64,000 bases of DNA, taken from an uncultured bacterium (GTDB lineage: Bacteria > Patescibacteriota > Minisyncoccia > Phycocordibacterales > CAIRYW01). A program made the translations under genes and the position numbers. A model generated the notes under the pieces. That model was not told where the DNA came from. It did not search any database and was given only the letters and a program-made list of their open reading frames with translations. Location: contig CAIRYW010000019.1 in assembly GCA_903882905.1 (NCBI GenBank), positions 1,406-65,405 on the forward strand, read 5' to 3'. Positions 21,775 to 57,809 of the stretch are shown piece after piece (positions within the stretch are counted from its first letter, which is position 1; every line of letters begins with the position of its first letter).

Positions 21775-21922
21775 GTGGCTGAGAAAGGTGTGGGACACCT
21801 TTCGCAAGGGCGATGATGGGCGCAACGATGTTTTGTCAGCAGACAAAACAGTGAGCTGGGATAGCAAAATTTCCGAGCGACGGCGAAGAAATATTTGTGA
21901 TCATCACCCTTCAGCCGCGCAA
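21775..21922 (+). repeat. tRNA-linked structured element (Asp copy) ending in a 24-bp duplicate of the tRNA 3' end
   Basis: gatcatcacccttcagccgcgcaa at 21722-21745 and 21899-21922; split antisense copy at 21775-21817. Confidence 0.75.
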
Positions 21923-21923
21923 T

Positions 21924-21948
21924 AAAAATCCCCGAAAGGGGATTTTTT
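21924..21948 (+). terminator. Intrinsic terminator
   Basis: aaaaatcccc-gaaa-ggggattttt. Confidence 0.75.
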
Positions 21949-22029
21949 CGTGGTCAATAAAAGCATAAGTAACGAAATAGATAAACCTACGTCTTTTGTG
22001 TTGTCTAAATCTGGTATAATTTTCTACAT

Positions 22030-23067
22030 ATGAAAAACTCTCAAAAAGGATTTATTGGTAAATTAGTTCTAATTATTATCGCAATCCTAATTATAGGTGG
22101 TTTATTTTTATACTATCAAAATAATAATCAATCAAAAGTAAATAATAATGTGGTCGATAATTTTTTATCGAAATGTGGTTTTAAAGTAACTTCAATTACT
22201 CCAAATGAAAAAGTAAATTTTCCTTTAATTGTGAAAGGTGTGATCGATAATTCAAATGCAAAAACTCTTGGGTGCTCTTGGCAAATGTTTGAAGGTGAAG
22301 CTGGTGTAGCGCAATTATATTTCAATAATAATCAAAGTTGGAATCCGATTGGTGTCGGTGTACCAATAAATGTTGCTGATTGGATGACTACGTCGACTAC
22401 CTTTTCCGTATTACTTAACTTTAATAATGACGGAATTGGGTTGTCTACAGGAACTCTAATGAAAATTACTTTCACAGAAGAAAATCCATCAGGACAAGGA
22501 ATAACTGATTCAATAGATCTTCCTATTATATTCGGTAACATTTCCTCTGTCTCAGAAAATGCAGTCTATGAAAATAAGCTAAACGGTTTTTCTTTTTCCT
22601 ATCCAAGTAAATTTAGTCTCGCAGATAATGAAACTATTTTAAATCAACCTTGGGAATACAATACAACAGATACTGGAAATTTAATTGCAAGAGTTGTGAT
22701 CCCAAGAACTATTCAGCCGAAAACAAATTTTGGTGAAGCTTATTTCGATGTCGGTGTGAGCACGAGTACAGATTCAATAAAAAATTGTCTTATATCTTCA
22801 GGTGTTAATACAACAGATGTATCTAGTATAAGTATAAATGACCAGAGTTTTGAAGTTTTTCATTACAACGACGCAGGAGCTGGAAATTTTTATGATGTAA
22901 CAAGTTATCATACAGTCAAGAATGGAAAATGTTTTGTGCTGGAATCTTTTGTTCATTCGTCAAATATAGGGAATTATTCACCGGACCAAGGAATAAAAGA
23001 ATTCGATAAAATTTTAGTAAATAATATTTTGAAAAATATAGTTGAATCATTCCAGTTTTTAAATTGA
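22030..23067 (+). CDS. Surface protein with a pilin-like (class III) N-terminus
   Basis: MKNSQKG|FIGKLVLIIIAILII; FEGE motif and FSFSYP...GAG PsbP-like C-terminal region. Confidence 0.6.
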   Translation: MKNSQKGFIGKLVLIIIAILIIGGLFLYYQNNNQSKVNNNVVDNFLSKCGFKVTSITPNEKVNFPLIVKGVIDNSNAKTLGCSWQMFEGEAGVAQLYFNNNQSWNPIGVGVPINVADWMTTSTTFSVLLNFNNDGIGLSTGTLMKITFTEENPSGQGITDSIDLPIIFGNISSVSENAVYENKLNGFSFSYPSKFSLADNETILNQPWEYNTTDTGNLIARVVIPRTIQPKTNFGEAYFDVGVSTSTDSIKNCLISSGVNTTDVSSISINDQSFEVFHYNDAGAGNFYDVTSYHTVKNGKCFVLESFVHSSNIGNYSPDQGIKEFDKILVNNILKNIVESFQFLN

Positions 23068-23082
23068 TTTAAATAAAAATAT

Positions 23083-23502
23083 ATGGAAGAAAAAGAATTT
23101 AGAGTTGGTGTCGGCGTGATGATTTTTAAAGAAAATAAGATTCTACTTGGCAAGAGAAAGGGAAGTCATGGGTCAGGAGAATTTTCTTTCCCAGGAGGAA
23201 AAATGGAATACAAAGAATCTTTCAAAGATTGTGTTTTACGAGAAATTAAGGAAGAGTGTGGAGTAGAAATCGATAATATTGAATTTTTGATTGTCGCAAA
23301 TATAAAACAATATTTACCAAAACATCATGTCCTTGTGGGCTTTAGAGCGACATGGAAATCGAGTGAGCCTGCAGTATTGGAGCCAGAAAAATGTGAAGGC
23401 TGGGGTTGGTACGACTTAGATAAACTACCTGAACCACTTTTTGAAGCATCAAAAATAATGATTGATGCTTATAAAGATAAAAGATCTTTCCTAGATAGCT
23501 AA
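23083..23502 (+). CDS. NUDIX hydrolase (NUDT15-like)
   Basis: PGG....ESFKDCVLREIKEECG; EPEKCEGWGW. Confidence 0.9.
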   Translation: MEEKEFRVGVGVMIFKENKILLGKRKGSHGSGEFSFPGGKMEYKESFKDCVLREIKEECGVEIDNIEFLIVANIKQYLPKHHVLVGFRATWKSSEPAVLEPEKCEGWGWYDLDKLPEPLFEASKIMIDAYKDKRSFLDS

Positions 23503-24011
23503 ATAATCTTTCCTTTTAATATTTTCATTACGTCTTTTCTAACTGCCGGGATTTTTTTGTTTGCATCTATAAAAATTGCATCTTTAAACTTTGGCGCTGA
23601 ATAGCGTAAGCAATTTTTTTTGATATCTCTTATTGTTCTACATTTTTTTCTACTTCTAGCTCTTTTAATACTATTTTCTAATTTAGTTTTTAAAAAAAGA
23701 TGAATATAATTTATTTTTCCTATTTTTATTTTTAATTCCTTTATTAATACTACTGTCCATGAACTACTTATTACAACATTTATATTTTTTGCAATATAGG
23801 AATTAATCATGTCAATCATCACACGTCTTGTGAGATTGTGATAAGAAATATTTTTCTGAAATGAATTAATAAAATATTTTATTATATCCATATCCAAAAA
23901 AACTGTTTTATTTGGAAGTTTTTTCTTTAGGTAACTAGCAAGAGTTGTTTTACCGGCACCTATAGGCCCATTTATTAGTAAAACAAAAGGTTTTACTTTA
24001 TGAGTTTTCAT
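23499..24011 (-). CDS. P-loop kinase / AAA family protein
   Basis: INGPIGAGKTT; very AT-rich. Confidence 0.7.
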   Translation of the reverse strand: MKTHKVKPFVLLINGPIGAGKTTLASYLKKKLPNKTVFLDMDIIKYFINSFQKNISYHNLTRRVMIDMINSYIAKNINVVISSSWTVVLIKELKIKIGKINYIHLFLKTKLENSIKRARSRKKCRTIRDIKKNCLRYSAPKFKDAIFIDANKKIPAVRKDVMKILKGKII

Positions 24012-24084
24012 ATCTTCATTATATCACACTTTATAATAAAGAGCAATTAGCTAATAATAAGATAGTCTGTAGAATTATAAAACT

Positions 24085-24780
24085 ATGAGCAAGACTTTTT
24101 GGGAAAAAGAATATAAAGATCCAAGACATTTAGCGATGTCAGATGAGCCTGCAGAAGACTTAATTCATTTTGCTAAGTGGACAGTTAGGAATGCAGAATG
24201 GAATCCATTTCCAAAAGATGGCTTTACACTTGATATTGGTTGTGGAAATGGAAGGAATATTATAAATCTTTGTGAAGAATACAATATGCATGGATTAGGT
24301 ATAGATATTTCGTCTACTGCAATTGAACAAGCTACAAACAAGACAAAAACAAAAAATTTAAAAATTAATTACGTAATAATGGAGGTAAAGGATCGGCTAC
24401 CAATCGAAGATGCAACTTGTGACGTCGTTTTAGATATGATGACTTCACATTTTTTGAATGAAGCAGATAGAAAATCTTTGGCGTTAGAGATTGCAAGAGT
24501 TACAAAGCCCTATGGTTGGGTAATGTTTAAAACTTTTATTATGGATGGAGATAGTCATGCGAAAAGATTGATTAAAGAATTTCCAGCCGGAGAAGAGGGA
24601 AGTTATATTCATCCAAAAATAAAGGTTGCTGAACATGTTTTTACTGAACAAGAAATTTATGATTTATTTTCTCCGAATTTTAAAATATTTAAGATGTTGA
24701 AAAGTTATAAGCATGTTCTTGATGGCAAACCACACAAGAGGAGAACAGTTTCTGTTTATCTAGAAAGAAAGAGAGATTAA
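24085..24780 (+). CDS. Class I SAM-dependent methyltransferase
   Basis: LDIGCGNGRN, GIDIS. Confidence 0.88.
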   Translation: MSKTFWEKEYKDPRHLAMSDEPAEDLIHFAKWTVRNAEWNPFPKDGFTLDIGCGNGRNIINLCEEYNMHGLGIDISSTAIEQATNKTKTKNLKINYVIMEVKDRLPIEDATCDVVLDMMTSHFLNEADRKSLALEIARVTKPYGWVMFKTFIMDGDSHAKRLIKEFPAGEEGSYIHPKIKVAEHVFTEQEIYDLFSPNFKIFKMLKSYKHVLDGKPHKRRTVSVYLERKRD

Positions 24781-24796
24781 TAATTAATAAAAAAAT

Positions 24797-25228
24797 ATGC
24801 AATCAAAAGATTTAACAAAAGAAGCCCCAAGAAGTCCTTATGAATTAATTAATGGTTTTACTATCTTAGCAAGGACAATAGATAAGTGCAGAGCTGTTAT
24901 TGCTGAAACAAATGGAGAATACCACTTTGATTGTCCTTTGGATAAAGCTTTATTTGGTTTTAAAGGAATCGATGCAAACGAGTTTAAGGATTTTGTTGCA
25001 TCAGGTAGTAGTGATGAAGAAATCGGAGAGTGGGTTTTTGAACATGGAACTCAAAAAACAGTTGATGAAATAAAAACTTGGAGTAAACATTTTCATTCTG
25101 ATTTCTCTTACTCAACAGATCCAAATAAAAGCACTTGGTTTAAAGGTGAATGCGAAAGACTTGGACTTGATCCAATGAAAACAACCCTTTTTGATTATCT
25201 AGAAGTAGACGATAAGGCAAGTTTTTAA
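24797..25228 (+). CDS. DUF5069-like protein
   Basis: PRSPY, LARTIDKCRA, GEYHFDCPLD. Confidence 0.7.
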   Translation: MQSKDLTKEAPRSPYELINGFTILARTIDKCRAVIAETNGEYHFDCPLDKALFGFKGIDANEFKDFVASGSSDEEIGEWVFEHGTQKTVDEIKTWSKHFHSDFSYSTDPNKSTWFKGECERLGLDPMKTTLFDYLEVDDKASF

Positions 25229-25285
25229 AATACTTTTTTTAAATTGAAAATACTGTCCGATTATAATAGTATGTGCTGACAACTT

Positions 25286-25552
25286 GCCGTTGTAGCTCAG
25301 TTGGTAGAGCACGTCATTGGTTAGTTAAATAGCCCATCATTTTGGAAACGAAATGATGAATCCCGAATTACGGTTAAAGTCCACGCAAGTGGGTAAGACC
25401 GTGGCGAGAAATCGCCCGAACGACTGACAAGGGACGCTAAACCGAAAAGGTATGTGTAAGATACAGTCTAATCCTTTTATAAGTCATTGCGGCGAAATAA
25501 AGGTAGGAAATGAATGACGAGGTCTCCGGTTCAATCCCGGACAACGGCTCCA
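25286..25552 (+). tRNA. tRNA-Thr(GGT) split by a group I intron (exons 25286-25321 and 25513-25552)
   Basis: Acceptor gccgttg/caacggc plus TCCA; spliced loop tt GGT|aa; exons sum to 76 nt. Confidence 0.88.
25322..25512 (+). ncRNA. Group I intron (191 nt) at position 36/37
   Basis: P1 ggt|ta-gttaaa-tagcc with U.G; P7 gactg/cagtc (aacgactga, aagatacagtc); terminal G. Confidence 0.85.
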
Positions 25553-25553
25553 T

Positions 25554-25589
25554 TTAAAAACCACCAGCAAATTTGCTGGTGGTTTTTAA
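25554..25589. terminator. Bidirectional terminator (perfect palindrome)
   Basis: ttaaaaaccaccagcaaatttgctggtggtttttaa between convergent genes. Confidence 0.75.
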
Positions 25590-25613
25590 TTTCCATAGAA
25601 TCAGATATCACAT

Positions 25614-25838
25614 TTAGGCAGATATTTTTGAAGATGAAACGCACGCTTTGCAAGTTTTTTTGTGAATTACAACTTCAACGATTGCAGCAACACCGACAAG
25701 AATGTAGACAATATTTGCTAAAGTACTTCCTGCTCCAAAAGCCATTGCGACTAAGTCCCATCCTCCAATTCCTACCAAAAGCCAGTTAAGGCCTCCAATA
25801 ATAAGAAGGATGAAAGAAATCATGTGAATAGTTTTCAT
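25614..25838 (-). CDS. DUF378 family membrane protein
   Basis: LLIIGGLNWLLVG...DLV...VYILVG. Confidence 0.85.
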   Translation of the reverse strand: MKTIHMISFILLIIGGLNWLLVGIGGWDLVAMAFGAGSTLANIVYILVGVAAIVEVVIHKKTCKACVSSSKISA

Positions 25839-26033
25839 AGAGTTTTGAAATTAAATTGTTAATTTCGACCTCGAGTCTGACACTTAAATTATAACACTTT
25901 ATTTAGAGTTATAGACACCTAAGAGAATAATGTTTGAGCCTTTGCAACAATTAATAAGGTTTGATGACTTTCATCTTGATTTAGAGACCATATTGAAATG
26001 TAATGGTACATTATCAAATTCGTCATATAGGTT

Positions 26034-26477
26034 GTGAGGAACATACCAAAAAAATATTTAATTGTGATTGGGGTTTTTGTTGTTGTTGTCTTGGTGTCAC
26101 TTTTTATTATATTTAATCCATTCAATCATCTCGATAGCGCCACACTTGCCGCAAGAAGAGGAGCTACCGAACTCTTATCAGTCACCATCATGACTGATTT
26201 AGTTAGTTACTATAATGTTGAGAGTAATTTTTTGGACTTCTCAAAAAGTCTTGCAGTAAAACAAAAAATTGCGGGGGAGATTTTAGATCTAAAAACAAAA
26301 TACGGAGGAGACTATGATTATAAAATTTTTGAAATATCAGAAAGGGGATTGTCTATTAAGACAGTCGAGAAAACTACGGGGACTTATTATTGTATCGATA
26401 ACGCAACCTATGTTCCTGTTGAAATTAAAAGCGATCAATTTACTGTAAATTCAGATTGTACTGGAAAAAGATTGTGA
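26034..26477 (+). CDS. Hypothetical membrane-anchored protein
   Basis: N-terminal TM; C-terminal YYCID..C resembling pilin globular ends. Confidence 0.55.
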   Translation: MRNIPKKYLIVIGVFVVVVLVSLFIIFNPFNHLDSATLAARRGATELLSVTIMTDLVSYYNVESNFLDFSKSLAVKQKIAGEILDLKTKYGGDYDYKIFEISERGLSIKTVEKTTGTYYCIDNATYVPVEIKSDQFTVNSDCTGKRL

Positions 26478-26532
26478 TTTTTTTAAATTAAGTAATTGAT
26501 TTATTCGGTGCTATGTAATATCTTTTCTTAGT

Positions 26533-26608
26533 GCCGATGTAGCTCAGTTGGTAGAGCAGGCGCTTCGTAAGCGTCAGGTCGACAGTTCGATTCTGTCCAT
26601 CGGCTCCA
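26533..26608 (+). tRNA. tRNA-Thr(CGT)
   Basis: Canonical 76-nt cloverleaf, loop tt CGT aa, CCA encoded. Confidence 0.95.
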
Positions 26609-26676
26609 TAAATATAGAATATCTATATTTAGAGAATCGAAAAGCGCAGATATATTTTTCTGGTAATATTGTATTA

Positions 26677-27549
26677 ATGAAAGAAGAAAAAGAGAAAAGA
26701 ATATTAGAAATAGAACAACTTATGACAGGCTCGGATTTTTGGGCTGATAAAGAAAAAGCTCAACTTTTGATTAAAGAATTACAGGAGTTAAAGACTACTG
26801 TTGAGGGCGGAAGTCCCTTTGATAGCGGAGATGCTATTTTGACGATTTTTTCTGGAGCAGGGGGAATTGATTCTGAAGATTTTGCCTCAATGCTTCTTTC
26901 GATGTACCAAAAATATGTTGCAAAGAGAGGATGGGGAACGTACTTGGTTCATGAAAATAAAAATGATCATGGTGGAATTCGCAATACTACTTTTGAAATA
27001 AAAGGAAAGAACGCGTATGGAATTTTAAAAAATGAATCAGGTGTTCATCGTCTTGTGCGACTTTCTCCGTTTAATTCAAAAAGTTTGAGACATACCTCAT
27101 TTGCAATGGTTGAAATAATTCCAAAGTTTGAAAAAAAAATGAATATAGAGGTACCAGAATCTGAACTTAAAATTGAATTTTCAAAATCTAGTGGTCCAGG
27201 AGGACAAAATGTAAACAAAAGAGAAACAGCTGTGAGGATTGTTCATGTTCCAACAAAAATTTCGGTGCATGTAGATTCTCAGAGGAGTCAGGGACAAAAT
27301 AAAGAAAAAGCACTTGAGATTTTAAAAGGCAAACTCTACACGATTTTTGAGGCAGAAAGAATTGCTCGAGAAAAGGGAATGCAAATATCTAAGACCACAG
27401 ATGTGGAGTGGGGAAATCAGATTCGCTCTTATGTTTTGCATCCATATAAGATGGTTAAGGACCATAGAACGAATGTTGAGACCGCAAATACAGAAGCTGT
27501 TTTAAATGGAGATATCGAAAAATTCTTAGAAGCCGAAAAATTTCTGTGA
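26677..27549 (+). CDS. prfB: Peptide chain release factor 2 (shortened N-terminus)
   Basis: GAGG, RLSPF, GGQ, WGNQIRSY; ATG 26677 chosen because the longer ORF start lies inside a tRNA. Confidence 0.9.
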   Translation: MKEEKEKRILEIEQLMTGSDFWADKEKAQLLIKELQELKTTVEGGSPFDSGDAILTIFSGAGGIDSEDFASMLLSMYQKYVAKRGWGTYLVHENKNDHGGIRNTTFEIKGKNAYGILKNESGVHRLVRLSPFNSKSLRHTSFAMVEIIPKFEKKMNIEVPESELKIEFSKSSGPGGQNVNKRETAVRIVHVPTKISVHVDSQRSQGQNKEKALEILKGKLYTIFEAERIAREKGMQISKTTDVEWGNQIRSYVLHPYKMVKDHRTNVETANTEAVLNGDIEKFLEAEKFL

Positions 27550-27561
27550 AGAAATTTTGAG

Positions 27562-27666
27562 GCCCAGCACATAGTTTTTCTGATTTCGTGCCATGTTGGT
27601 CTAATTTTGATATAATTAATACACATTGAGTTTTAATTTTCTACCCAGAAAAACTATGTGCTGGGC
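27562..27666. repeat. CCCAGCAC-family element upstream of ftsE
   Basis: Perfect 21-bp IR gcccagcacatagtttttctg / cagaaaaactatgtgctgggc; encloses TGATATAAT. Confidence 0.8.
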
Positions 27667-27705
27667 ATTAATTTCTAAAACTCATTTCATTCGTTAAGAA
27701 ATTAT

Positions 27706-28386
27706 ATGATCTACTTTGATAAAGTTTCAAAAAAATATTCTGATACATCTACTGCTCTTGAAGAGATAACAATTTCTGTGGAACCAAAAGAGTTTGTTTC
27801 TATTGTGGGCCACTCTGGTGCAGGAAAAACGACGCTTCTTAAAATGATTTTAGGTGAAGAATCACCGTCACAGGGAAGTGTCTATTTTGAATCAGTAAAC
27901 ATTCATAAATTAGGGAAGCACGATATAAACAAATATCGCAGAAGAATTGGTACTGTTTTTCAAGATTTCAGACTTTTACCCCACTTAACAGTTTTTGAAA
28001 ATATAGCTTTTGCTATGGAAGCCTCAGGAAGAAGTGAAGAAGATATTGCTTCTGATGTTCCTCATGTTCTTGAATTGGTAAATCTTTCAGACAAGATCAT
28101 GTCTTTTCCAAGACAACTTTCTGGTGGAGAAAAACAAAGAGTTGCTATTGCGCGTGCGATTGTAAATCAACCAGATATTATTATTGCTGACGAGCCGACT
28201 GGAAACCTAGATCCAATTTCAAGTAGAGAAATTATTGATATCCTTCAAAAAATAAATGAATTAGGAACAGTAGTCATTCTTGCAACTCATAATAAAGAAA
28301 TTGTTGATTCACTTGGAAAGAGAGTCATTACTATGGAAAAAGGAAAAATTATTAGAGACAACAAGAAAGGTAAATTTGTGATGTAA
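27706..28386 (+). CDS. ftsE: Cell division ATP-binding protein FtsE
   Basis: GHSGAGKTT, VFQDFRLL, LSGGE, ADEPTGNLD; followed by ftsX. Confidence 0.93.
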   Translation: MIYFDKVSKKYSDTSTALEEITISVEPKEFVSIVGHSGAGKTTLLKMILGEESPSQGSVYFESVNIHKLGKHDINKYRRRIGTVFQDFRLLPHLTVFENIAFAMEASGRSEEDIASDVPHVLELVNLSDKIMSFPRQLSGGEKQRVAIARAIVNQPDIIIADEPTGNLDPISSREIIDILQKINELGTVVILATHNKEIVDSLGKRVITMEKGKIIRDNKKGKFVM

Positions 28387-28390
28387 AAAT

Positions 28391-29311
28391 ATGTTTTGGA
28401 TTAATACAAAAAGAATAGTCAGACTTGGTTTTATAAATTTTGCTAGAAATATTTCTGTTTCTATTGCAGCTGTTTTAATTACAACTGTTGCTTTATTGGT
28501 TATAGCTTCACTTATGTTTTCAAGAGCTGTTCTTGATTCAACTTTGTCTCAAATACAAAATGCCGTTGATATAAGAGTTTATCTTTCAAATTCTGCAAAC
28601 AATGATGAAATTGCATCGCTCCAAAAAAGAATAGAAGCCTTGCCTGAAGTTGCCCAAGTTTCATTATCGACAAATGATCAAGAGTTGGCTGATTTTACAA
28701 GCAGACATCAAAATGATCAGCTTACCCTTCAAGCTATAGAAGAGATTGGTGCAAATCCTTTTGGATCAGCGTTTAGTATCAAAGCAAAAGATATTTCTCA
28801 ATATTCAGGTATCGCATCATTTTTAGATGCAGAACAAAATCAGACTCAAAGTAGTATTATCGACCGTGTAAACTATTCAAGAAATAAACAAGCAATCGAC
28901 GTTATAAATAAAATGATTGCCTCATCAAAAAAACTTGGAATTACAGGAGTAATATTTTTCTCATTGATTTCACTTTTGATAACCTTCAACACAATTAGCC
29001 TTGCAATATATATGGCAAGAGAAGAGATATCTGTGATGAGACTTGTCGGCGCAAGTACGCGTTATATTCGAGGGCCATTTATAGTGAGTGGTTTGATTTA
29101 TGGTCTGTGTGCATCAATACTTTCACTAATAATTATCCTTCCTATTACTTATTGGGTGGGGCCAAAAATCTATGATTTAGGAACCGGAATAAACCTATTT
29201 AACTTTTATCTATCAAATATAGTTATGTTTATTGGTGTTATCACTGCTTCAGGTCTTGCTATCGGAGCTTTGTCTAGCTATTTGGCCGTAAGAAAGTATT
29301 TAAAAGTCTAA
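28391..29311 (+). CDS. ftsX: Cell division permease FtsX
   Basis: REEISVMRLVGA..YIRGPF. Confidence 0.92.
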   Translation: MFWINTKRIVRLGFINFARNISVSIAAVLITTVALLVIASLMFSRAVLDSTLSQIQNAVDIRVYLSNSANNDEIASLQKRIEALPEVAQVSLSTNDQELADFTSRHQNDQLTLQAIEEIGANPFGSAFSIKAKDISQYSGIASFLDAEQNQTQSSIIDRVNYSRNKQAIDVINKMIASSKKLGITGVIFFSLISLLITFNTISLAIYMAREEISVMRLVGASTRYIRGPFIVSGLIYGLCASILSLIIILPITYWVGPKIYDLGTGINLFNFYLSNIVMFIGVITASGLAIGALSSYLAVRKYLKV

Positions 29312-29385: not shown

Positions 29386-31020
29386 ATGAAAAAGTCACAT
29401 AAATACATTTTTGTAGTTGGAGGAGTGATGTCTGGAGTAGGAAAAGGAGTGACAACTTCTTCAATCGGAATGCTTCTTCAGTCCTGCGGTTACAAAGTAA
29501 ATATTGTAAAAGTAGATCCTTATCTAAACGTTGATGCTGGTACAATGAATCCAACAGAGCACGGAGAAGTTTTTGTGCTCGACTCTGGATTAGAGACCGA
29601 TCAAGACATGGGAAACTATGAAAGATTTTTAAACCGTGATATTTCGTCTAATTGTTATATGACCAGTGGAATGGTTTACAAATCTGTAATCGAAAAAGAA
29701 AGATCTCTTGGATATGGAGGTAAATGTGTTGAAGCGATTCCGGATATTCGAGATGAAATTATCAAACGTTTCAATTTTGCAGGAGATAAAGCTCATTCTG
29801 ATATTTCTATAATTGAAATTGGAGGAACAGTTGGTGATTACCAAAACATAATGTTCATCGAAGCGGCTCGAGTAATGAAAATCAGAAATCCCAAAGATGT
29901 TATTTTCATAATGGTCTCCTATCTTCCAGTTCCAGGAAAATTAGGAGAAATGAAATCAAAGCCGACACAAAACGCAATGCGAATGCTTAATTCCTATGGA
30001 GTTCAAGCAGATGTTTTGATTGCAAGAAGTGAAGTTGGAATGGACGATAAGAGAAGAGAAAAAATTGCTATTTCATGCAGTATTCCAAAAGACTATGTCA
30101 TTTCTGCACCAGATGTTGATGTTATTTATGAAGTTGCAGAAAATTTTGAAAAAGGAAATTTAAGTAAAATTATTTTGAATTTGATTAGTCTTCCTAAAAA
30201 GCCATTAGATCTAACTCCTTGGAAAAACTTTATTTCAAAAGTTAAAAATGTAAAAAAAGAAGTAAAAATCGCTGTGGTAGGAAAATATTTTGATACAGGA
30301 GATTTTACACTTTCTGATGCATATCTTTCTGTTATTGAAGCAGTCAAGTTTTCTGCATACCACAGTGGCGCAAAAGCAAAGCTTACATGGCTTAATTCAA
30401 AAGAATTTGAAAAAGATTCAAGTAAATTAAATTCTCTCAAAAATTTTGATGGAATCATTGTTCCAGGAGGATTTGGAGAAACAGGAATCGAAGGAAAGCT
30501 TTCTGCTATTAAATTTGCAAGAGAAAATAAAATTCCATATTTTGGACTATGTTACGGTATGCAACTCATGGTAATTGAATACGCACGCAATGTTTTAGGC
30601 TGGAAAGATGCAAATACATCCGAAATTACAAAAAAATCTGATCATTTGGTGATTGATATAATGCCAGACCAAGAGAAAAAACTTTTGGAAAAGGATTTTG
30701 GTGGATCAATGAGACTCGGTGCTTACCCAGCTGTTCTAAAGAAGGGAACAGTCGCATTTGCAAGTTACGATATAGATAAAATTTCTGAACGTCATCGACA
30801 TCGATACGAAGTAAATCAGGAGTTTATAAAAGATTTAGAAAATGCTGGTTTGGTTTTTTCTGGAACATCTCCAGACGGAAAATTAATGGAAATTGCCGAA
30901 CTTCCAAAATCAAAACATCCATTTTTCCTAGGAACTCAATTTCATCCAGAATTTAGAGCACGACCTCTTTCACCGCACCCACTCTTTTCAGCTTTCATAA
31001 AAGCTGCGCTAAAGAAATAA
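29386..31020 (+). CDS. pyrG: CTP synthase
   Basis: GGVMSGVGKG, DPYLNVDAGTMNP, GLCYGMQ, QFHPE. Confidence 0.97.
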   Translation: MKKSHKYIFVVGGVMSGVGKGVTTSSIGMLLQSCGYKVNIVKVDPYLNVDAGTMNPTEHGEVFVLDSGLETDQDMGNYERFLNRDISSNCYMTSGMVYKSVIEKERSLGYGGKCVEAIPDIRDEIIKRFNFAGDKAHSDISIIEIGGTVGDYQNIMFIEAARVMKIRNPKDVIFIMVSYLPVPGKLGEMKSKPTQNAMRMLNSYGVQADVLIARSEVGMDDKRREKIAISCSIPKDYVISAPDVDVIYEVAENFEKGNLSKIILNLISLPKKPLDLTPWKNFISKVKNVKKEVKIAVVGKYFDTGDFTLSDAYLSVIEAVKFSAYHSGAKAKLTWLNSKEFEKDSSKLNSLKNFDGIIVPGGFGETGIEGKLSAIKFARENKIPYFGLCYGMQLMVIEYARNVLGWKDANTSEITKKSDHLVIDIMPDQEKKLLEKDFGGSMRLGAYPAVLKKGTVAFASYDIDKISERHRHRYEVNQEFIKDLENAGLVFSGTSPDGKLMEIAELPKSKHPFFLGTQFHPEFRARPLSPHPLFSAFIKAALKK

Positions 31021-31027
31021 TTCGGAG

Positions 31028-31070
31028 GACTTGTAGGTAATTCCTCCTGTGGAGGTTTTTCCTCTAAGTC
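31028..31070. repeat. 43-bp REP-like doublet; inverted copy of 50402-50444
   Basis: 37/43 identity to the reverse complement of 50402-50444; two AGG-N5-CCT units. Confidence 0.75.
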
Positions 31071-31141
31071 TTTTTATTTTGATTTTTTGGTTAAAAAAAG
31101 CTAAAGTAATTGAGCTTTTAGTATTTCTATAAGCAATAAAT

Positions 31142-31296
31142 TGCGGGTTCGTCTAATGGTAGGACGTTCACTCTGAGGAGCTATTGGGGTGAGCTTGGGA
31201 TAAGGGACCCAAGTGCAAGACCGGAATCCGCGTAGGCGGATGAGGAGGGGTCGCGAAATTTTTCAGCAGAAAAATATTTGTGACCGAGTCCCTGAC
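31142..31296 (+). pseudogene. Degenerate tRNA-Gln copy interrupted in the T-loop by a structured element (31191-31284)
   Basis: tgcgggttcgtctaatggtaggac is identical to the start of the intact gene at 31307; tRNA sequence resumes as cgagtccctgac after aaatatttgtgac. Confidence 0.75.
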
Positions 31297-31306: not shown

Positions 31307-31380
31307 TGCGGGTTCGTCTAATGGTAGGACATCTCCCTCTGGAGGAGGCTATTGGGGTTCGAGTCCCTGACCCGCAGCCA
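31307..31380 (+). tRNA. tRNA-Gln(CTG)
   Basis: tgcgggt/acccgca, loop ct CTG ga, GCCA end. Confidence 0.93.
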
Positions 31381-48653: not shown

Positions 48654-48680
48654 ATTAAGATAGTGTTAAAATATTATCAC

Positions 48681-50401: not shown

Positions 50402-50444
50402 GGCTTGGAGGAAAAACCTCCGCGGGAGGAATTACCTCCAAGCC
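50402..50444. repeat. 43-bp REP-like doublet
   Basis: ggcttggagg-aaaaa-cctcc gcg ggagg-aatta-cctccaagcc. Confidence 0.75.
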
Positions 50445-50481
50445 CATTTGATTTTCCTTCTTTTCTGTATATAATGTTTAA

Positions 50482-51126: not shown

Positions 51127-51166
51127 TTTTCTTTGCTTTTTAAATTTGTTTTTTACTTAATTCTAA

Positions 51167-52519
51167 ATGATAAAAAATTTTAAAGGTTCTTTCGCAATTT
51201 TTTTTATCCTAATTTTACTTATAGGAGGTTTTTTGTTTTTATATAAAAAAAGTGAAGCTCAGATTGTAACTGATCCAGCCCAAAGAGCTGTTTTGCAGTC
51301 TCAACTTAATGAAATAGAAGCCGAGATAGCACAACAACAAGCTATTCTCGCCCAAAAACAAACAGAAGGATCTTCTATCTCACGAGACATTGCAATTCTT
51401 GATGCAAAAATCAAAGCATCACAATTAAAAATCAAAGCATACGATATTCAAATCAATCAACTTGGACAAGATATAACAGTTAAAACAAAAACTATTCAGA
51501 CTTTGGATGGTCAAATTTCTTCAGGCCAAGATTCTCTTGGACAAATTTTAAGACAAACTAAAGCACTTGATGATGTATCTCTTCCAGAGGTTTTGCTTTC
51601 GGGTCAAGATATTTCTTCTTTTTTTGTTGATTTAGATTCTTTTGATGCTGTTAAAACTTCACTATCAGATACTTTCAATAATCTTCGAGATGCAAAACAG
51701 GAAAACCAAAATCAGAAAGCAGATTTGAGTAAAAAACAAAATGCTACAATAGATACAAAGACCAATGTTCAAAAAGAACAAGCTCTTATCAAACAAAATC
51801 AAGCCGAAAAACAAAGACTTCTTTCTTTAAACAAGACAGAGCAGGCAGGATACCAGGCGGTGATTGCATCAAAATCTGCTCAAGCAGCAAAAATCCGTGC
51901 AGCACTTTTTTCCTTGGCTAACACTGCAGCAATTCCATTCGGGACAGCTCTTGAGTATGCTCAGGCTGTTCAAAAAATTACAAGCGTTGATCCAGCTTTT
52001 CTATTGGCTATTGTTACTCAAGAATCAAATCTTGGATCAAATGTTGGAGCTTGCTATTTAACTAACACGACAACTGGTGCAGGAGTGAATGTAACGAGTG
52101 GAAGAGTTTGGTCAAATCTTATGAAGCCGTCAAGAGATGTCGCTCCTTTTCTTGCAATAACTAGTGCTATTGGAAGAGATCCAATGAAGACAAAAGTTTC
52201 TTGTCCAATTGCTGGTGCTGGAGGATACGGAGGGGCAATGGGTCCAGCGCAATTTATTCCTTCAACTTGGGTTTTATTTGAGGACAGAATTAAATCTGGA
52301 TTGGGTGTGCAAAATACTGATCCATGGAATCCTGAACAAGCCTTTTTAGCCTCAGCACTTTATTTGTCTGATCTTGGAGCTGTAAATGGAAGTTATACTG
52401 GAGAAATAAAAGCCGCATGTAAATATTATGGTTCAGGCGGATCAACTTGTACTTACGGAAAACAAGTGATGGCGAAAGTGGCACAAATACAGGCTAATAT
52501 AAATATACTTAATAATTAG
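51167..52519 (+). CDS. Coiled-coil lytic transglycosylase-like cell wall hydrolase
   Basis: Signal/TM, long coiled coil, QESNLG, GAMGPAQFIPSTW. Confidence 0.8.
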   Translation: MIKNFKGSFAIFFILILLIGGFLFLYKKSEAQIVTDPAQRAVLQSQLNEIEAEIAQQQAILAQKQTEGSSISRDIAILDAKIKASQLKIKAYDIQINQLGQDITVKTKTIQTLDGQISSGQDSLGQILRQTKALDDVSLPEVLLSGQDISSFFVDLDSFDAVKTSLSDTFNNLRDAKQENQNQKADLSKKQNATIDTKTNVQKEQALIKQNQAEKQRLLSLNKTEQAGYQAVIASKSAQAAKIRAALFSLANTAAIPFGTALEYAQAVQKITSVDPAFLLAIVTQESNLGSNVGACYLTNTTTGAGVNVTSGRVWSNLMKPSRDVAPFLAITSAIGRDPMKTKVSCPIAGAGGYGGAMGPAQFIPSTWVLFEDRIKSGLGVQNTDPWNPEQAFLASALYLSDLGAVNGSYTGEIKAACKYYGSGGSTCTYGKQVMAKVAQIQANINILNN

Positions 52520-52579
52520 TTTAGATTCTCTGCCAAAAAGTTGCCTTTTTGAAGGTTTTTTTGTAGTATGTACGAACAT

Positions 52580-52849
52580 ATGAAAAAAGATATACATCCA
52601 GCAAATTACAGAAAAGTAGCTTTTGAAGATACCTCAAATAAGGAGATTTTTCTTATTTCCTCAACTGTTGCTACAAAAGAAACTACAAAAGTAGATGGTA
52701 AAGAATATCCACTATACAAAGTTGAAATTTCAAGTGCCTCACATCCTTTTTATACAGGAAACGACAATGTCGTTGACTCAGCAGGAAGAGTGGAAAGATT
52801 CAAAGCAAGAGCAACTAAAACTGGAGCTAAGAAAGAAAGTAAAAAATAA
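52580..52849 (+). CDS. rpmE: 50S ribosomal protein L31 type B (Cys-free)
   Basis: MKKDIHP, EISSASHPFYTG, GRVERF. Confidence 0.93.
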   Translation: MKKDIHPANYRKVAFEDTSNKEIFLISSTVATKETTKVDGKEYPLYKVEISSASHPFYTGNDNVVDSAGRVERFKARATKTGAKKESKK

Positions 52850-52891
52850 CTTCTCCTTTTAAAACCCAAGGCATACTTGGGTTTTTATTTT

Positions 52892-53899
52892 ATGGAACCT
52901 TCAAATTTCGATTTATCAAAATATAAAGAAAATAACAAAACTCGCTTTTTAGCAGAGGATTTTGAGCGTCTTTTGAAAGAAGAAATTGAAATCAAAGATA
53001 TCATTGCAAAAGAGCCAAGTATGAAAGAACTTTCAGAGGAAGAACTTGAAACAATTGAAAAACAAAAAAAAGAAATTGTCATACAAATGGAATCTATTTT
53101 GAAAGAGGAAGAAGTAGAAGAAGAATTTCCAAATGAAATAGTTCTTGAAGTGCGCGCTGGAGCTGGAGGCGAAGAAGCTTCACTTTTTGCAGAATCACTT
53201 GCAAAGATGTATGAGGGATATGCAAACATCGAAGGATTTGAATGGAGACCAGTAGATGAATCACAAAGTCAGATTGGAGGTTTTAAAGAAGCATCATTTG
53301 AGGTTAGAGGTAGAGATGTCTATAAAAAACTTAGGTATGAGACGGGTGTGCACAGAGTCCAAAGAATTCCAGCTACAGAAAAATCTGGAAGAGTACACAC
53401 ATCAACTGCTTCTGTTGCAATTTTGCCCATTAGAAAGAAAACAAAATTAGAAATTAAAGAAAGTGATCTTTTGATTGAGACTTCAAGATCAGGAGGAAAA
53501 GGGGGTCAAAATGTGAACAAAGTGGAAACAGCAGTGAGAATAGTTCACAAGCCAACTGGTATCGAAGTTAGAAGTACTTCACAGCGAAGTCAGCTGAAAA
53601 ATAAAGAAATGGCAATGTCTATTCTTTTTGCAAAGCTTGAAGCTCTTAAAGAAGAAACTGAAAACAAAAAATTTGCAAAAGACAGAAAAGCACAAATTGG
53701 GACAGGAGATCGTTCGGAAAAAATCCGAACTTATAATTATCTCCAGGATAGAATTACAGACCATAGAATAAAAGAATCTTGGCATAATTTACCTCAAATA
53801 ATGTTTGGTAACATAAAACCGATCATAGATGCTATTGCCGAGAAAGTAGAAAGTGGAAATGTTTCAGAAAACTCGTCCGGTGAGGATTTAGAGGATTAA
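52892..53899 (+). CDS. prfA: Peptide chain release factor 1
   Basis: [16 protein letters not shown] (PxT), [12 protein letters not shown]. Confidence 0.95.
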
Positions 53900-53905
53900 T
53901 TTTTT

Positions 53906-53944
53906 AAAGGACCGACCTTAAATCTTCAAAAAGGTCGGTCCTTT
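53906..53944. terminator. Hairpin after prfA built from two AGG-N5-CCT units
   Basis: aaaggaccgacctt...aaggtcggtccttt followed by a T-rich tract. Confidence 0.6.
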
Positions 53945-54010
53945 TGTTTTTAAAAAACCTCCCCTGGGGTATAATTAAATTACTATTAATTAATCGGTTA
54001 ATTATAAACA

Positions 54011-55516
54011 ATGAAAAAATATCTTTCTCTTCTCGGTGTTGGTTTGCTTTCTTTAGCAGTTTTTTCTCCAACGTTTGCTCAAAGTACAAGTACATCCTCA
54101 ACTGATTTAAACGTAACTACTCAAGCTTTAATAAAAGTATTAACCCAACTTCTTCAACAACTTGAATTGCAGTTGCAAACTTTGTTGGCAGAGCGGGGGA
54201 ATAATACTAATATCAATATGTCTGGTGGTAATTGCTCTTCTGGGCAAACGTGGAGTGGTTTAAATGGTGGTTGTATATCTCAAACACAAAATCAATCCTC
54301 ATCAATCACAGTTACTTCACCAAATGACGGAGACAGCTTAGTTATTGGTCAGAGTTATCAAATTAAGTGGATTCCTAATTCCACAAAAGTAAATATATTC
54401 TTAAACACATACGATCAAAACGGAAATCAGATCGGAAACGGACAACTTCAATGGATTGCTCAGGCAATAGATAATACTGGAATTTATAACTGGACACCGT
54501 CAACATCTGCCTTGACTCTCAGTACTGCATATAAATATAAAATAAGAATCACAAAGGCAAATGATTTGTCTTATGGTGTAAGTGATATGGGAGAATCTGC
54601 AGGGTTCTTTACTCTCAGAAATAGTTCAACACAAAATCAACCTTTCACAATTACTTTTCCAACACAGGGAGCAAGTCTTCAGGCTGGGCAGACTTATAAC
54701 GTAAGTTGGACGGGTTCTGATACAAATGTTAATAGCTATGCTGTGTATTTAAGTGGAGGAAAGCTTGGATCAAATGGTAGTAGTTTTATTGGTACAGCAT
54801 ATCCTCGCGGTGCTGGAAATGTTGGAACATTTTCTTGGGCAATTCCTGCTGACTTAACTTCAGCTTCAAATTACCAAATTCAATTTAGTGGAGCAGGTGC
54901 TACGGGTGGAAATAGTGGGACATTTAGTATTTCTGGTTCAACACAAAATCAACCTTCAATAACGATCAATTCACCGGGATCAGGTAAAATGTATAATCAA
55001 GGTGATACTTTAAACATTTCTTGGATAGCAAATGGTGTTAGTGGTGTTGGCTTAGGTCTAGACCATACCGATGGAACTTTCGCATCAATTATTGCTGTAG
55101 GTCTTCCTACTTCAGGAAATTATTCTTGGCAAATACCATCTAACTTTCCAACAGGTTCTTATGTAATTGTTGGTTCAGTTAATAATAATGGTAATCTAAT
55201 TTACAGTAATGGCCCTACTATTTCTATTGGTTCAGCGCAAAATCAAACAGTTTATCCGCCAAATATAGAAAGTGTTGGGTCGTCAGCCAATCCAGCAAAT
55301 TCATTTTATCCAGGTGATAATGTAAAGATTGTTGGAAGTAATTTTCCTCAAAATCCAACTATAATGATAGGTAATGCGTATGTTCTAGGACAGACAAATT
55401 CAAGTGGAATGAATATAAATTTTATAGCCCCATCACTTTCAGCAGGAACTTACAGTTTAAGTATTGCAGCAAAAGGTGGAGGTAATACTGTTCAAGTCAC
55501 AGTTTTATCTAGATAG
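54011..55516 (+). CDS. Secreted Ser/Thr-rich protein with three Ig-like repeats and an IPT/TIG-like domain
   Basis: Signal peptide; repeats ITVTSPN.G..., ITFPTQG..., ITINSPG... each preceded by TQNQ. Confidence 0.7.
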   Translation: MKKYLSLLGVGLLSLAVFSPTFAQSTSTSSTDLNVTTQALIKVLTQLLQQLELQLQTLLAERGNNTNINMSGGNCSSGQTWSGLNGGCISQTQNQSSSITVTSPNDGDSLVIGQSYQIKWIPNSTKVNIFLNTYDQNGNQIGNGQLQWIAQAIDNTGIYNWTPSTSALTLSTAYKYKIRITKANDLSYGVSDMGESAGFFTLRNSSTQNQPFTITFPTQGASLQAGQTYNVSWTGSDTNVNSYAVYLSGGKLGSNGSSFIGTAYPRGAGNVGTFSWAIPADLTSASNYQIQFSGAGATGGNSGTFSISGSTQNQPSITINSPGSGKMYNQGDTLNISWIANGVSGVGLGLDHTDGTFASIIAVGLPTSGNYSWQIPSNFPTGSYVIVGSVNNNGNLIYSNGPTISIGSAQNQTVYPPNIESVGSSANPANSFYPGDNVKIVGSNFPQNPTIMIGNAYVLGQTNSSGMNINFIAPSLSAGTYSLSIAAKGGGNTVQVTVLSR

Positions 55517-55725
55517 TGTTATAGAAATAGTCATAAAACATAAGGAGGCATCCTAACAGAGGATGGTCTCTTTATGTAGAAAGTTGCAAAAGGCCTAATA
55601 AGCTGATAATATAGCCCTCACATACGTGTCCCGTTAGAAATCAAACGGGGGAGGAAAAGACGTTAAATATATATAGATATCAACATATTTTATTAAAAAA
55701 TTATAGAAAATAAATTCTAACTGGG

Positions 55726-56445
55726 ATGGCAAAAACAGACAAAGAAATACCAAAAACAATCCAAGAAATGTTCGACGCAGGGGTGCATTTTGGCCTAATT
55801 AAGAGCCGAAGAGATCCTTCAACAAAGTCTTATATTTTTGGACAAAAAGGAAGTATGGAGATTTTTGATCTCGAAAAGACTAGTGGAATGCTAGAAAAAG
55901 CATTGGAACAAGTTAGCAAACTCGGAACAGAAAAGAAAACAATTCTTTTTGTCTCAAGTAAGAATGAATCAAAATCTTTAGTAAAATCTGCGGCTGAAAG
56001 ACTAAGTATGCCTTTTATTGCTGGACGTTGGATTGGAGGACTTCTTACTAACTTTAACGAAATAAAAAAGCGTTCAAGTAGACTTGTTGATTTAGAATCA
56101 AAAAAAGAAAAAGGAGAACTTATAAAATATACAAAAAAAGAAAGATTGCTTCTTGATAGAGAAATGGCAAACTTGAATGAACTTTTTGGAGGCATAAGAA
56201 CTCTTACAAAAATTCCAGATGCAATTTTTGTTGTTGATTCAAGAAAAGAATCAATTGCAGTTTTGGAAGCAAAAGGAATGAAGGTTCCAGTGATTGCACT
56301 TGCTTCAAGTGATTGCAATCTTAAAGAAGTTACTTTTCCAATTCCAGGGAATGATGCTTCAAGATCAAGTATTGAATATATTTTGAAGAGAGTAACTGAT
56401 GCATATCAGAGTGCGCCTGTTGCAGCCCCAGCGCCCACAGTTTAA
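55726..56445 (+). CDS. rpsB: 30S ribosomal protein S2
   Basis: AGVHFG, RWIGGLLTN, PIPGND. Confidence 0.96.
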   Translation: MAKTDKEIPKTIQEMFDAGVHFGLIKSRRDPSTKSYIFGQKGSMEIFDLEKTSGMLEKALEQVSKLGTEKKTILFVSSKNESKSLVKSAAERLSMPFIAGRWIGGLLTNFNEIKKRSSRLVDLESKKEKGELIKYTKKERLLLDREMANLNELFGGIRTLTKIPDAIFVVDSRKESIAVLEAKGMKVPVIALASSDCNLKEVTFPIPGNDASRSSIEYILKRVTDAYQSAPVAAPAPTV

Positions 56446-56478
56446 TTAAATTTAAAAATTAATTTTGTTCATTTAACT

Positions 56479-57069
56479 ATGATTACTACAGAACAAGTAA
56501 AAGAACTTCGTGATAGAACAGGAATCTCTATTATGCAATGCAAAAAAGCCCTTGAGGATGCAGGAGGTGATGCAGAAAAGGCATTAGTACTACTACAGAA
56601 AAAAGGAGCAGAAGTCGCAGATAAAAAATCAGATAGAAGCCTAGGGGCAGGTGTTGTTGTGTCATATATTCACAATACAGGCACTGTAGGTACATTAATT
56701 GAACTTTGGTGCGAAACAGATTTCGTGGCTAAAAATGAAGAGTTTAAGGCCCTTGCAAAGGATATCGCTATGCACATTGCCGCTACAAATCCCGCATATC
56801 TTTCTGTAGAGGATATTCCAGAAGCTGACAGAGCAACTGCTAAAGAAGTGTTTGCAAAGGAAGTCGAAGGAAAGCCAGAAGCAATGAAACAACAAATTCT
56901 TGATGGAAAAATTGCTGCTTATTTCAAAGACAAAGTTCTTTTAGAACAGGAATATATAAAGGATCCATCACTTACAATTTCCACACTGCTAAAAAATGCT
57001 ATTCAGAAGTTTGGTGAAAAGACTGTCATTGGAAAATTCGTAAGATTTTCTACAGTAGCAAAGTTCTAA
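56479..57069 (+). CDS. tsf: Elongation factor Ts (short form)
   Basis: VKELRDRTG, CKKAL, CETDFV. Confidence 0.96.
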   Translation: MITTEQVKELRDRTGISIMQCKKALEDAGGDAEKALVLLQKKGAEVADKKSDRSLGAGVVVSYIHNTGTVGTLIELWCETDFVAKNEEFKALAKDIAMHIAATNPAYLSVEDIPEADRATAKEVFAKEVEGKPEAMKQQILDGKIAAYFKDKVLLEQEYIKDPSLTISTLLKNAIQKFGEKTVIGKFVRFSTVAKF

Positions 57070-57081
57070 TTTATTTCAACT

Positions 57082-57462
57082 ATGTTTGCAACATCTATTA
57101 CAGTTTTTTTGGTCTCATTTATTGGAGCTATTTTTCTTGTAATAAATAGAGCAAGATTTAGTGACGGAAGAGTTGCTTATGTTAGTTTTCCAAAAGAATG
57201 GGATAAACTCCTTTCAGGGTTTTATCATGCTTCAAAAGTTCTTTTTACTGAATTACCAAAACATGTTGCCATCAATGTTTATCATTTTTTTGTCATTACA
57301 TTTGTTGATGCATCAAAGAAGACAAAACTCTTGATTTATCCAAAGATTTCACATATTGTAGAGACAGTTAAAGGAACGAATTTGCCGGAACAGAAGAAGC
57401 CGGCATCAGAGTTTTTGAAAGCGATCGTGAAGGAAGAAGTAGATAGTGAAAAAACAATATAA
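57082..57462 (+). CDS. Hypothetical membrane protein
   Basis: N-terminal TM; follows tsf. Confidence 0.6.
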   Translation: MFATSITVFLVSFIGAIFLVINRARFSDGRVAYVSFPKEWDKLLSGFYHASKVLFTELPKHVAINVYHFFVITFVDASKKTKLLIYPKISHIVETVKGTNLPEQKKPASEFLKAIVKEEVDSEKTI

Positions 57463-57464
57463 AC

Positions 57465-57540
57465 GCCGCCTTAGCTCAGTTGGTAGAGCGCCACTTTTGT
57501 AAAGTGGATGTCCTCAGTTCAAATCTGAGAGGCGGCTCCA
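57465..57540 (+). tRNA. tRNA-Thr(TGT)
   Basis: Canonical 76-nt cloverleaf, loop tt TGT aa, TCCA end. Confidence 0.95.
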
Positions 57541-57572
57541 GAAAAAAGTCCCTTATGGGGACTTTTTTATTT

Positions 57573-57809
57573 GCCACCTCAGAACTCAATGGGTATTGAG
57601 TTCATTCAGATTTGAAAGGCGCAGCTAGGTTTTTCAGCAGAAAAACCAGCGAGTCGGGTGAGAAGCGAAGACTTGAAGCTTCGCAAGACCTTTTCAGATT
57701 TTTTATGAGATTTGCGAAATAAAAATCGAAAAGGTGTACTGAAACTGTAAGTTTCGAGAAATTTTGAAAGCGACGGCTTTCAAAATATTCGTGACCAAAT
57801 CTGAGAGGC
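57573..57809 (+). repeat. tRNA-linked structured element (Thr copy) ending in a duplicate of the tRNA 3' part
   Basis: Split antisense gccacctc..tcagatttgaa; aaatattcgtgac fused to caaatctgagaggc (57796-57809). Confidence 0.75.

Follow-up and report, generated by a model that had tools for sequence, protein, structure and literature searches.

What places a folded, non-coding segment behind a bacterial tRNA gene, together with an antisense and a sense copy of the 3' end of that very gene? The question is raised by a DNA stretch of 64,000 nucleotides from an uncultured bacterium of the Patescibacteriota (the whole stretch is called the window below; contig coordinates G000:C19:1406-65405, in a genome of 746 kb with 35% GC). 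Behind both tRNA-Asp and tRNA-Thr(TGT) the order is tRNA, terminator, an antisense arm to tRNA positions 72-65 and 64-54, a folded core and a sense copy of the tRNA that starts at C56, and a relative of the core is found within a copy of tRNA-Gln. The original prediction, made from the letters of the window, proposed either a small RNA-like mobile element with a guide-like antisense part or an antisense RNA that regulates tRNA.

The comparisons reported here indicate that the segments almost certainly belong to a lineage-wide set of small, non-autonomous mobile insertion elements. The element is multi-copy and protein-less, has a length of 80-220 nt, and lies after a G with the next two bases of the target missing. 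We give a rough probability of 0.5 to the reading that the elements move as folded single-stranded DNA by means of an enzyme encoded elsewhere that makes a two-base staggered cut, and that the arm is the opposite strand of the target captured at insertion rather than a guide.

The copies in the window

The pieces that had been described for the Asp, Thr(TGT) and Gln copies are all present at the positions given below, and the layout at Asp and Thr(TGT) is the same. The scores refer to R1, a covariance model built from 17 copies after an iterated search of this genome.

21454..21743, + strand: tRNA-Asp(GTC), host gene, split by a 217-nt group I intron (21488-21704), with A54 in the T-loop (ARAGORN with introns; Rfam Intron_gpI, 53 bits, E 1.5e-12)
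21747..21774, + strand: terminator-like hairpin, the tip of a long hairpin that links the tRNA-Asp tail and the antisense arm (sequence, fold)
21775..21817, + strand: antisense arm to tRNA-Asp 72-65 and 64-54, interrupted by a 9-bp hairpin (sequence comparison)
21818..21901, + strand: type A core of 84 nt, consisting of P1 (3-bp stem, purine internal loop, hairpin) and P2 (long stem with bulged A at 21893, closing on C56) (R1 E 6.7e-8, as a copy of the training set; covariation)
21902..21922, + strand: exact 21-nt sense copy of the tRNA-Asp 3' end, from C56 (sequence)
21924..21948, + strand: second terminator-like hairpin, after the spare Asp tail (sequence)
26631..26664, + strand: truncated fourth copy behind tRNA-Thr(CGT) (26533-26608), in which 54-64 are complemented at 10/11 positions and the first part of a type A core follows (sequence; not scored by R1)
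31142..31189, + strand: degenerate second copy of tRNA-Gln covering positions 1-53, its anticodon arm decayed (sequence)
31190..31284, + strand: free-standing type A element of 95 nt with its own 5' hairpin, replacing T54-T55 (R1 E 2.1e-16, training copy)
31285..31296, + strand: remainder of the broken tRNA-Gln copy, 12 nt from C56 onwards (sequence)
31307..31380, + strand: intact tRNA-Gln(CTG), just downstream of the broken duplicate (gene scan)
57465..57540, + strand: tRNA-Thr(TGT), host gene (gene scan)
57542..57568, + strand: terminator-like hairpin after tRNA-Thr(TGT) (sequence, fold)
57573..57616, + strand: antisense arm covering tRNA-Thr 72-65 and 64-54, the two parts separated by a 9-bp hairpin (57582-57603) (sequence comparison)
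57617..57795, + strand: type A core with an insertion behind 57658 and its bulged A at 57787 (R1 matches both halves separately and weakly)
57659..57754, + strand: nested type B element of 96 nt with its own 5' hairpin, replacing two bases of the type A core (type B census; empty site in G003)
57796..57809, + strand: 14-nt sense copy of tRNA-Thr, from C56 (sequence)

The division of both arms at the acceptor/T-stem junction by a 9-bp hairpin, as originally described, was borne out. In the Asp arm, 21775-21782 pairs with the tRNA at 7/8 positions (the eighth being a G.T wobble) and 21807-21817 at 10/11, with the hairpin at 21783-21803; in the Thr(TGT) arm the corresponding segments 57573-57580 and 57606-57616 pair at 7/8 and 11/11. 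Since the arms include positions 54-55, they match the intact tRNA and not the junction between element and copy. The predicted folds are exceptionally stable, with z-scores of -4.1 (Asp), -5.9 (Thr) and -4.2 (Gln), and none of 200 shuffled sequences was equally stable.

Some points of the first description need to be amended. A host-matched antisense segment had been claimed for three tRNAs and is indeed found at Asp and Thr(TGT), but the Gln copy has its own hairpin inside a degenerate duplicate; as described, it ends at 31284 directly at C56 of the 12-nt tRNA-Gln copy. With the intact gene taken as the empty site, this element shows a gap of two nucleotides. The Thr copy, which had been taken for a single element, does have the type A layout but consists of two elements, the type B one being nested in the other. 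The corresponding empty site is seen in the relative G003, which carries an uninterrupted type A element at the same tRNA-Thr(TGT). A DNA contig of run X1, which may be the source sample, is identical to 30459-31280.

Free copies and the target rule

Some copies carry a short 5' hairpin of their own. These free copies were found in the D-arms and anticodon stems of tRNAs, in duplicates of 5S rRNA, in REP-like repeats that flank Y1 genes, and in other copies of the element. Among 32 parsed free copies, 16 had a nearby comparator for the empty site, and in 14 of these exactly two bases are missing; the two exceptions are a one-base ambiguity and a weak match. An independent metagenome set of 51 hits (45 distinct) gave the same gap for 7/7 comparators with at most one mismatch and for 11 of all 14 comparators, the remaining three being weak. 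The base at position -1 is G in 24/24 copies and in 44/45 distinct metagenome copies, where it was not forced by the search patterns (the 32-copy parse did force this G and was thus excluded from the count). The base after the element is never G in the 24- and 45-copy sets. The lost pairs themselves are diverse: CT, CG, AA, GT, CA, TG, TT, AC and TA.

Copies in 5S rRNA genes occur in both orientations, antisense in at least five loci (L087, L124, L268, L274 and L284) and sense in three (L077, L113 and L271). The 27 distinct metagenome copies of which both ends could be parsed measure 83-118 nt. Longer copies with a reverse transcriptase, recombinase or nuclease gene, which the original prediction had envisaged, did not turn up: none of the 51 metagenome hits bears an open reading frame, the hits other than these 27 showing variant cores, nested inserts or contig ends in the 90 nt examined. 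As free copies enter targets to which they have no match, the arm is not needed for the choice of the target. Moreover, the loss of two target bases means that splicing would not restore the gene, and the two orientations in 5S genes imply that the target is not the RNA.

These observations bear directly on the proposal that the arm acts as a guide, similar to an exon-binding site or to the target loop of the IS110 bridge RNA, which would choose the tRNA site for an RNA-guided recombinase. Two target-matching segments divided by a conserved hairpin, and the strong tracking of the host by the arm, are what such a guide would look like. Nevertheless, homologs stand away from tRNA tails with one fixed 5' hairpin that does not match their unrelated targets, an outcome that the original prediction had named as refuting it, and the arms contain locus-specific bases of the tRNA trailer. 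The DEDD recombinase of IS110 has no match in this genome and is found in 1/41 genomes; with a single hairpin and unrelated targets, the IS110/bridge RNA system was rejected. We regard a guide function as quite unlikely.

Structure of the core

The type A core is composed of P1, a 3-bp stem with purine internal loop and hairpin, and P2, a long stem with a nearly invariant bulged A. Double-sided changes occur in 16/23 pairs, a level of covariation reached by 0/500 shuffles, and slid alignments are paired for 34-45% against 91% observed, where it should be kept in mind that deriving the structure from the tested sequences themselves favours it. P2 pairs across the junction to C56, and its end pair varies together with its partner. 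The type B core follows the same three-hairpin plan. The cores were not covered by any Rfam family (window at gathering score, Asp region by E-value, 15 loci).

Cores of neither type A nor type B stand after the same antisense arm behind tRNA-Gln and another tRNA (L263:1500 region; G000:C4:127650-127780; G000:C4:159670-159800). In addition, the spare tRNA tail contains, near position 58, an inserted mini-hairpin of 12-14 nt with a GTAC centre in L065, L079, L084, L123 and L130; it is possibly a third, minimal element or a scar.

The bulged A, 8 nt before an AY end, had suggested a likeness to group II introns. Domains V-VI of these introns and the group III introns of Euglena have a bulged A in the 3' stem, an AY end and a size of about 100 nt, a combination of which the element is reminiscent. 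The bulged A was confirmed, but the stem does not end at a free AY; it continues across the junction. The elements also differ in that domains I-IV are lacking, there is no fixed triad, two nucleotides of the target are lost and either orientation occurs. The middle pair of P1, which would belong to the domain V triad, varies freely (AU 9, CG 5, UA 2 and GC 1 in 17 copies), and Intron_gpII gave no Rfam match in the window, the Asp region or 15 loci. A group II intron was thus rejected on the missing catalytic triad, the loss of two target bases and the antisense copies in 5S rRNA.

A broader variant holds that the element is an RNA retro-element, either a group II-like ribozyme in miniature or a sequence carried along by a reverse transcriptase, for which target-primed copying would give the 2-bp loss, as in R2. 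The position of the bulged A would suit it, as would a G.T wobble that is kept on one strand in 16/17 copies, the preference for stable-RNA genes, the uniform sense orientation of the free copies observed in tRNA genes, and the presence of a reverse transcriptase in this genome. Besides the missing triad and Rfam match, and a terminal stem that pairs through the junction, it has to contend with the antisense copies in 5S genes and with a reverse transcriptase that is found in only 17/41 genomes and is missing from several element-rich ones. The content of the loops, measured against a weak control, also leans towards folded DNA. Among the tetraloops of the cores GNRA was counted 1/221 times and UNCG not at all, whereas GNA triloops make up 17/58 against 0 for the reverse complements; the top strand folds better in 132/133 cores. 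This poverty in RNA-type tetraloops, the one-stranded GNA triloops and the two orientations in 5S genes are the grounds for preferring DNA, and we consider an RNA retro-element distinctly improbable.

The antisense arm

The relation between arm and host was tested by parsing 82 loci, 41 of which have a copy that starts at C56, and scoring the best complement to positions 54-64. For these 41 copies the arm matches its own tRNA at 9.4/11 positions, compared with 7.7 +/- 0.14 for shuffled hosts and a maximum of 8.2 in 1000 shuffles. A small mobile family whose antisense part co-varies with the adjacent tRNA, as originally proposed, is therefore upheld. Many of the other 41 loci use a second site, at the acceptor end. 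The mismatches in the arms (G.T 7, A.C 4, other 22) do not tell the strands apart by type. The sense copy is identical at 18/18 tested bases in 11/41 of the T-loop copies and shorter in the others.

A parse of 133 cores, in which the "free" class was left out because of mis-parsed rows, showed that 54 duplicate their target and may be called restoring copies. In 50/54 of them the arm holds the complement of the two bases that follow the G, across seven dinucleotides; the G before the two bases is present in 51/54 and a C follows the element in 49/54. Complementarity continues past the end of the tRNA into the trailer for 26/104 tRNAs with a type A core and 14/134 tRNAs without a recognised core, the latter class still including other core types.

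Spread of the family

R1 found 20 matches in this genome and 1-19 in 37/40 relatives, namely in 20/20 within the family and 17/20 elsewhere in the order. Across the phylum it matched 7/150 genomes, with fewer candidates scored per genome. An exact core pattern was found at 120 loci, from which about 920 stretches are estimated for the genome collection. Of 80 titled records that share the core, 69 are from Patescibacteria, 8 are labelled plain "bacteria" and 3 have other names. Viral contigs gave 0 matches with two patterns and plasmids gave no match. A tRNA or tmRNA lies at most 330 nt upstream of 83/125 distinct R1 matches, only 79 of which have the full flank.

The family is gained and lost between relatives. 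At tRNA-Thr(TGT), five relatives show two full elements, one collapsed remnant and two loci without an element (200-330 nt examined). The search for an orthologue of the tRNA-Asp locus returned a sole match, to an intron in another tRNA.

Whole units are repeated in tandem via the duplicated tRNA tail in L244 and L062, as in the arrays of E. coli discussed below. Copies and tandem arrays also stand behind ribosomal protein genes (rplK and rplL by eye), away from stable-RNA genes, in L037, L047, L049 and G000:C21:37055-37129. Upstream of the window, at G000:C19:430-470, a short insert in the 16S rRNA bears a likeness to the 3' terminus of the type A core.

Some further observations concern the tRNA genes themselves. 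A free-standing LAGLIDADG gene (20785-21474) ends inside the 5' end of tRNA-Asp(GTC), and odd T-loops are also seen in other tRNA-Asp genes among the loci (L057, L071). At 25286-25552 lies a tRNA with a 191-nt intron, which ARAGORN calls Pro(GGG) although its sequence suggests Thr(GGT). In three runs there are DNA contigs that lack precisely 25322-25512, and the Rfam group I model gave no match to this intron at E 0.01.

Relation to known systems

The closest likeness in layout is to the tRNA-linked repeats (TLRs) of E. coli. According to the passages available from PMC8144298, the first description of TLRs dates from 1978 and they are without a known function; what defines them is a repeat, 18-19 bp long, of the terminal 3' sequence of the tRNA or 5S gene that they follow. 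They form tandem arrays, and 22 were counted. In the part seen of a second source, the mode of action of rttR is called unknown (bioRxiv 10.1101/2024.07.17.603846). The set considered here comprises the 178-bp repeats of tyrT with RttR, proK, the lys cluster and rrA/rrB/rrF. The position behind a tRNA or rRNA gene is shared (here the 83/125 matches plus the 5S cases), and so is the end in a copy of the host 3' end, 21 nt long at Asp. In fact, the tyrT, proK and lysQ repeats of K-12 carry an antisense arm to the T-arm ahead of a hairpin-rich core, and no clear arm was found in the rrfB repeat of K-12. The passages of PMC8144298 that concern antisense, complementary, mobile or insertion mention neither an arm nor mobility. 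The GATGAGAA junction of tyrT and proK recurs in the present family, where 9/133 cores end the arm in GAGAA; judged from the sequence, this variant would put tandem G.A pairs in the arm helix.

There are differences as well. The core is unrelated, R1 reaching at best 5.5 bits on the tyrT region without matching the tyrT repeats; the sense copy starts at 58-59 in E. coli and at C56 here; and free forms with the 2-nt loss are seen here and were not sought in E. coli. As R1 does not match the E. coli core, the two have the same layout, which is not shown membership of one family. The Patescibacteria family appears TLR-like in layout and undescribed: no description was found in the literature searched, which was without supplements, most subscription papers and the original TLR papers.

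TLRs also bear on the second proposal of the original prediction, namely that the segment is an RNA of the host that controls how tRNAs are processed or how much of them is present, the arm of a read-through transcript folding onto the T-arm and acceptor. In predicted folds the arm does pair with the intact tRNA tail, and the 5S-linked TLRs of E. coli are transcribed by read-through and bind Hfq and CsrA, according to the parts available of PMC8144298. Such a regulator fits poorly with gain, loss and collapse between close relatives and with copies that are nested, antisense, or inside broken duplicates. A secondary role of this kind is possible; as the explanation of the family, it is very unlikely.

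The REP/REPIN sequences with their RAYT (Y1 HUH) genes, the derivatives of IS200/IS605 that lack a reading frame, and the Ssn/SRM repeats of the Ssn nuclease are likewise non-autonomous, folded hairpins. Their strand specificity may be shared, given the better folding of one strand and loops of DNA type, though against a weak control. Free copies have entered the repeats on either side of both Y1 gene types in this genome, but the elements are not associated with those genes. A precise single-strand insertion would also not delete target bases. A REPIN or IS200/IS605 derivative was rejected, the Y1 genes being flanked by different repeats and the core being found at 0/11 Y1 loci of relatives. 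The two RAYT-like Y1 genes (G000:C21:27090-27990, L019; G000:C27:67250-68010, L020) each lie between inverted copies of their own REP-like repeat; one of these repeats resembles a tRNA T-arm, and free elements are inserted in both repeat types.

In elements that exploit Xer (CTX attP+) and in the attC sites of integrons, recombination takes place between duplex DNA and a folded single strand that bears an extrahelical base. The folded strand with the extrahelical base is shared, but no dif-like or attC box was seen at the targets examined, and one strand exchange would not lose two bases. SsnA, a GIY-YIG enzyme, cuts single-stranded DNA beside a hairpin, as stated in the accessible part of PMC11893778. 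An enzyme of this type is a plausible kind of helper, though the small GIY-YIG genes of this genome are unlinked to the cores.

A possible mechanism

On the reading preferred here, movement as folded single-stranded DNA, the reaction would involve DNA rather than RNA chemistry. The target would be cut in a staggered manner at G-NN|H, after two variable bases on each strand, so as to leave 2-nt 3' overhangs. This is the overhang geometry of serine recombinases and GIY-YIG nucleases. For the free form, the 3' end of each element strand, at the foot of its own-strand hairpin, would join the recessed end of the target and the overhangs would be lost. For the restoring form, the core alone would cap both strands of the downstream half-site, and the opposite strand of the target would become an antisense arm that ends in the correct two bases. 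A template switch at the terminator hairpin would then yield the order of tRNA, terminator, antisense, core and spare tail. Survival would be limited to insertions after which an intact gene remains; this would account for the intact twin of every broken copy examined beside an essential tRNA.

Several observations weigh against this reading. The capping step predicts a duplicated terminator, whereas the first and second Asp terminators differ. The own tail is best or tied in only 27/41 arms. Arms to many different tRNAs share the 9-bp hairpin at their 64/65 junction, and at Asp (21783-21803) comparison with free copies shows a resemblance to the hairpin at the left end of one free subfamily; some of the arm region is therefore inherited and not copied from the target. 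The free copies seen within tRNA genes are uniformly sense, and the control for the loops is weak, the terminator-like hairpins of this genome being likewise poor in GNRA (5/76) and devoid of UNCG. Neither a circle nor an RNA nor a reaction was observed.

The search for a mobilising enzyme tells against it too, as none was found. The original prediction had seen no reading frame or integrase close to the elements, and the neighbours are of mixed kinds: 114 frames (108/155 candidate flanking frames and 6 window frames, omitting spurious-looking ones and the last five) included one resolvase, one GIY-YIG, one LAGLIDADG and no reverse transcriptase. Among the 41 genomes, matches were found to Y1 in 22, large serine recombinase in 30, reverse transcriptase in 17, IS110 in 1 and GIY-YIG (including long frames of UvrC size) in 41; none tracks copy number. 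For instance, G025 (14 copies, 99% complete) and G031 (6 copies, 100%) have no match to Y1, large serine recombinase, reverse transcriptase or IS110, and G030 has 4 Y1 and 5 recombinase matches with zero copies. The core is present at only 4/53 loci around Y1, recombinase or GIY-YIG genes, and the flanks examined of the four small GIY-YIG genes of this genome contain none. A search for IS91 gave no match anywhere, controls included, and carries no weight.

This genome has five large serine recombinases (G000:C3, C4, C13, C16; L174-L177), two of which end at tRNA genes, and a 378-aa reverse transcriptase frame at G000:C27:5400-6949 (L021), the upstream region of which resembles the template of a diversity-generating retroelement.

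The inherited hairpin and the recombinases are best considered together with the possibility that the loci are integrase-type (attL/attR) scars of a tiny cassette, the arm being made later by template-switch perfecting of a palindrome around the terminator. An intact gene, an insert and a displaced 3' piece from the T-loop form the standard layout of islands with att sites in the T-loop and of CIMEs. Large serine recombinases adjoin tRNA-Ala and tRNA-Thr in this genome, inverted loop variants are present among the cores, and the hairpin at 64/65 would suit an arm that was corrected rather than newly made. Integrases retain the crossover bases on both sides, however, whereas the right junction here never repeats 54-55 and holds the element's own pair, and the free copies lose the target pair; an attL/attR island was rejected for this reason. 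Moreover, the family measures about 100 nt without an integrase inside, carries the antisense arm, uses many sites (T-loop, D-arm, anticodon stem, acceptor end, 5S rRNA and other elements) and has no link to recombinase genes. Integrase scars seem unlikely.

A more far-reaching form of the single-strand reading is an undescribed mode of transposition, in which a folded DNA core of about 70 nt would be joined to both strands of a target with a 2-base stagger, each jump would write a host-matched arm, TLRs would arise by the same process, and the enzyme would be common in near-complete genomes without known transposases. We think this doubtful. An enzyme able to insert a small folded strand into double-stranded DNA with so little demand on the site would represent transposition chemistry of a new kind.

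Implications

What is new here is the free form with sharp ends, the rule of a G at position -1 and a two-base loss, the occurrence in both orientations, the nesting, for which a relative provides the empty site, and the presence of an antisense arm in TLRs of E. coli. The lineage shows the TLR layout together with an apparent mobile form, with many young copies, sharp ends, empty sites and a precise target rule. The origin of TLRs thus becomes a testable question, and the element provides a defined substrate for the search for the enzyme. Finally, the elements shape the tRNA and 5S loci of these bacteria and create pseudo-tRNAs that can mislead annotation.

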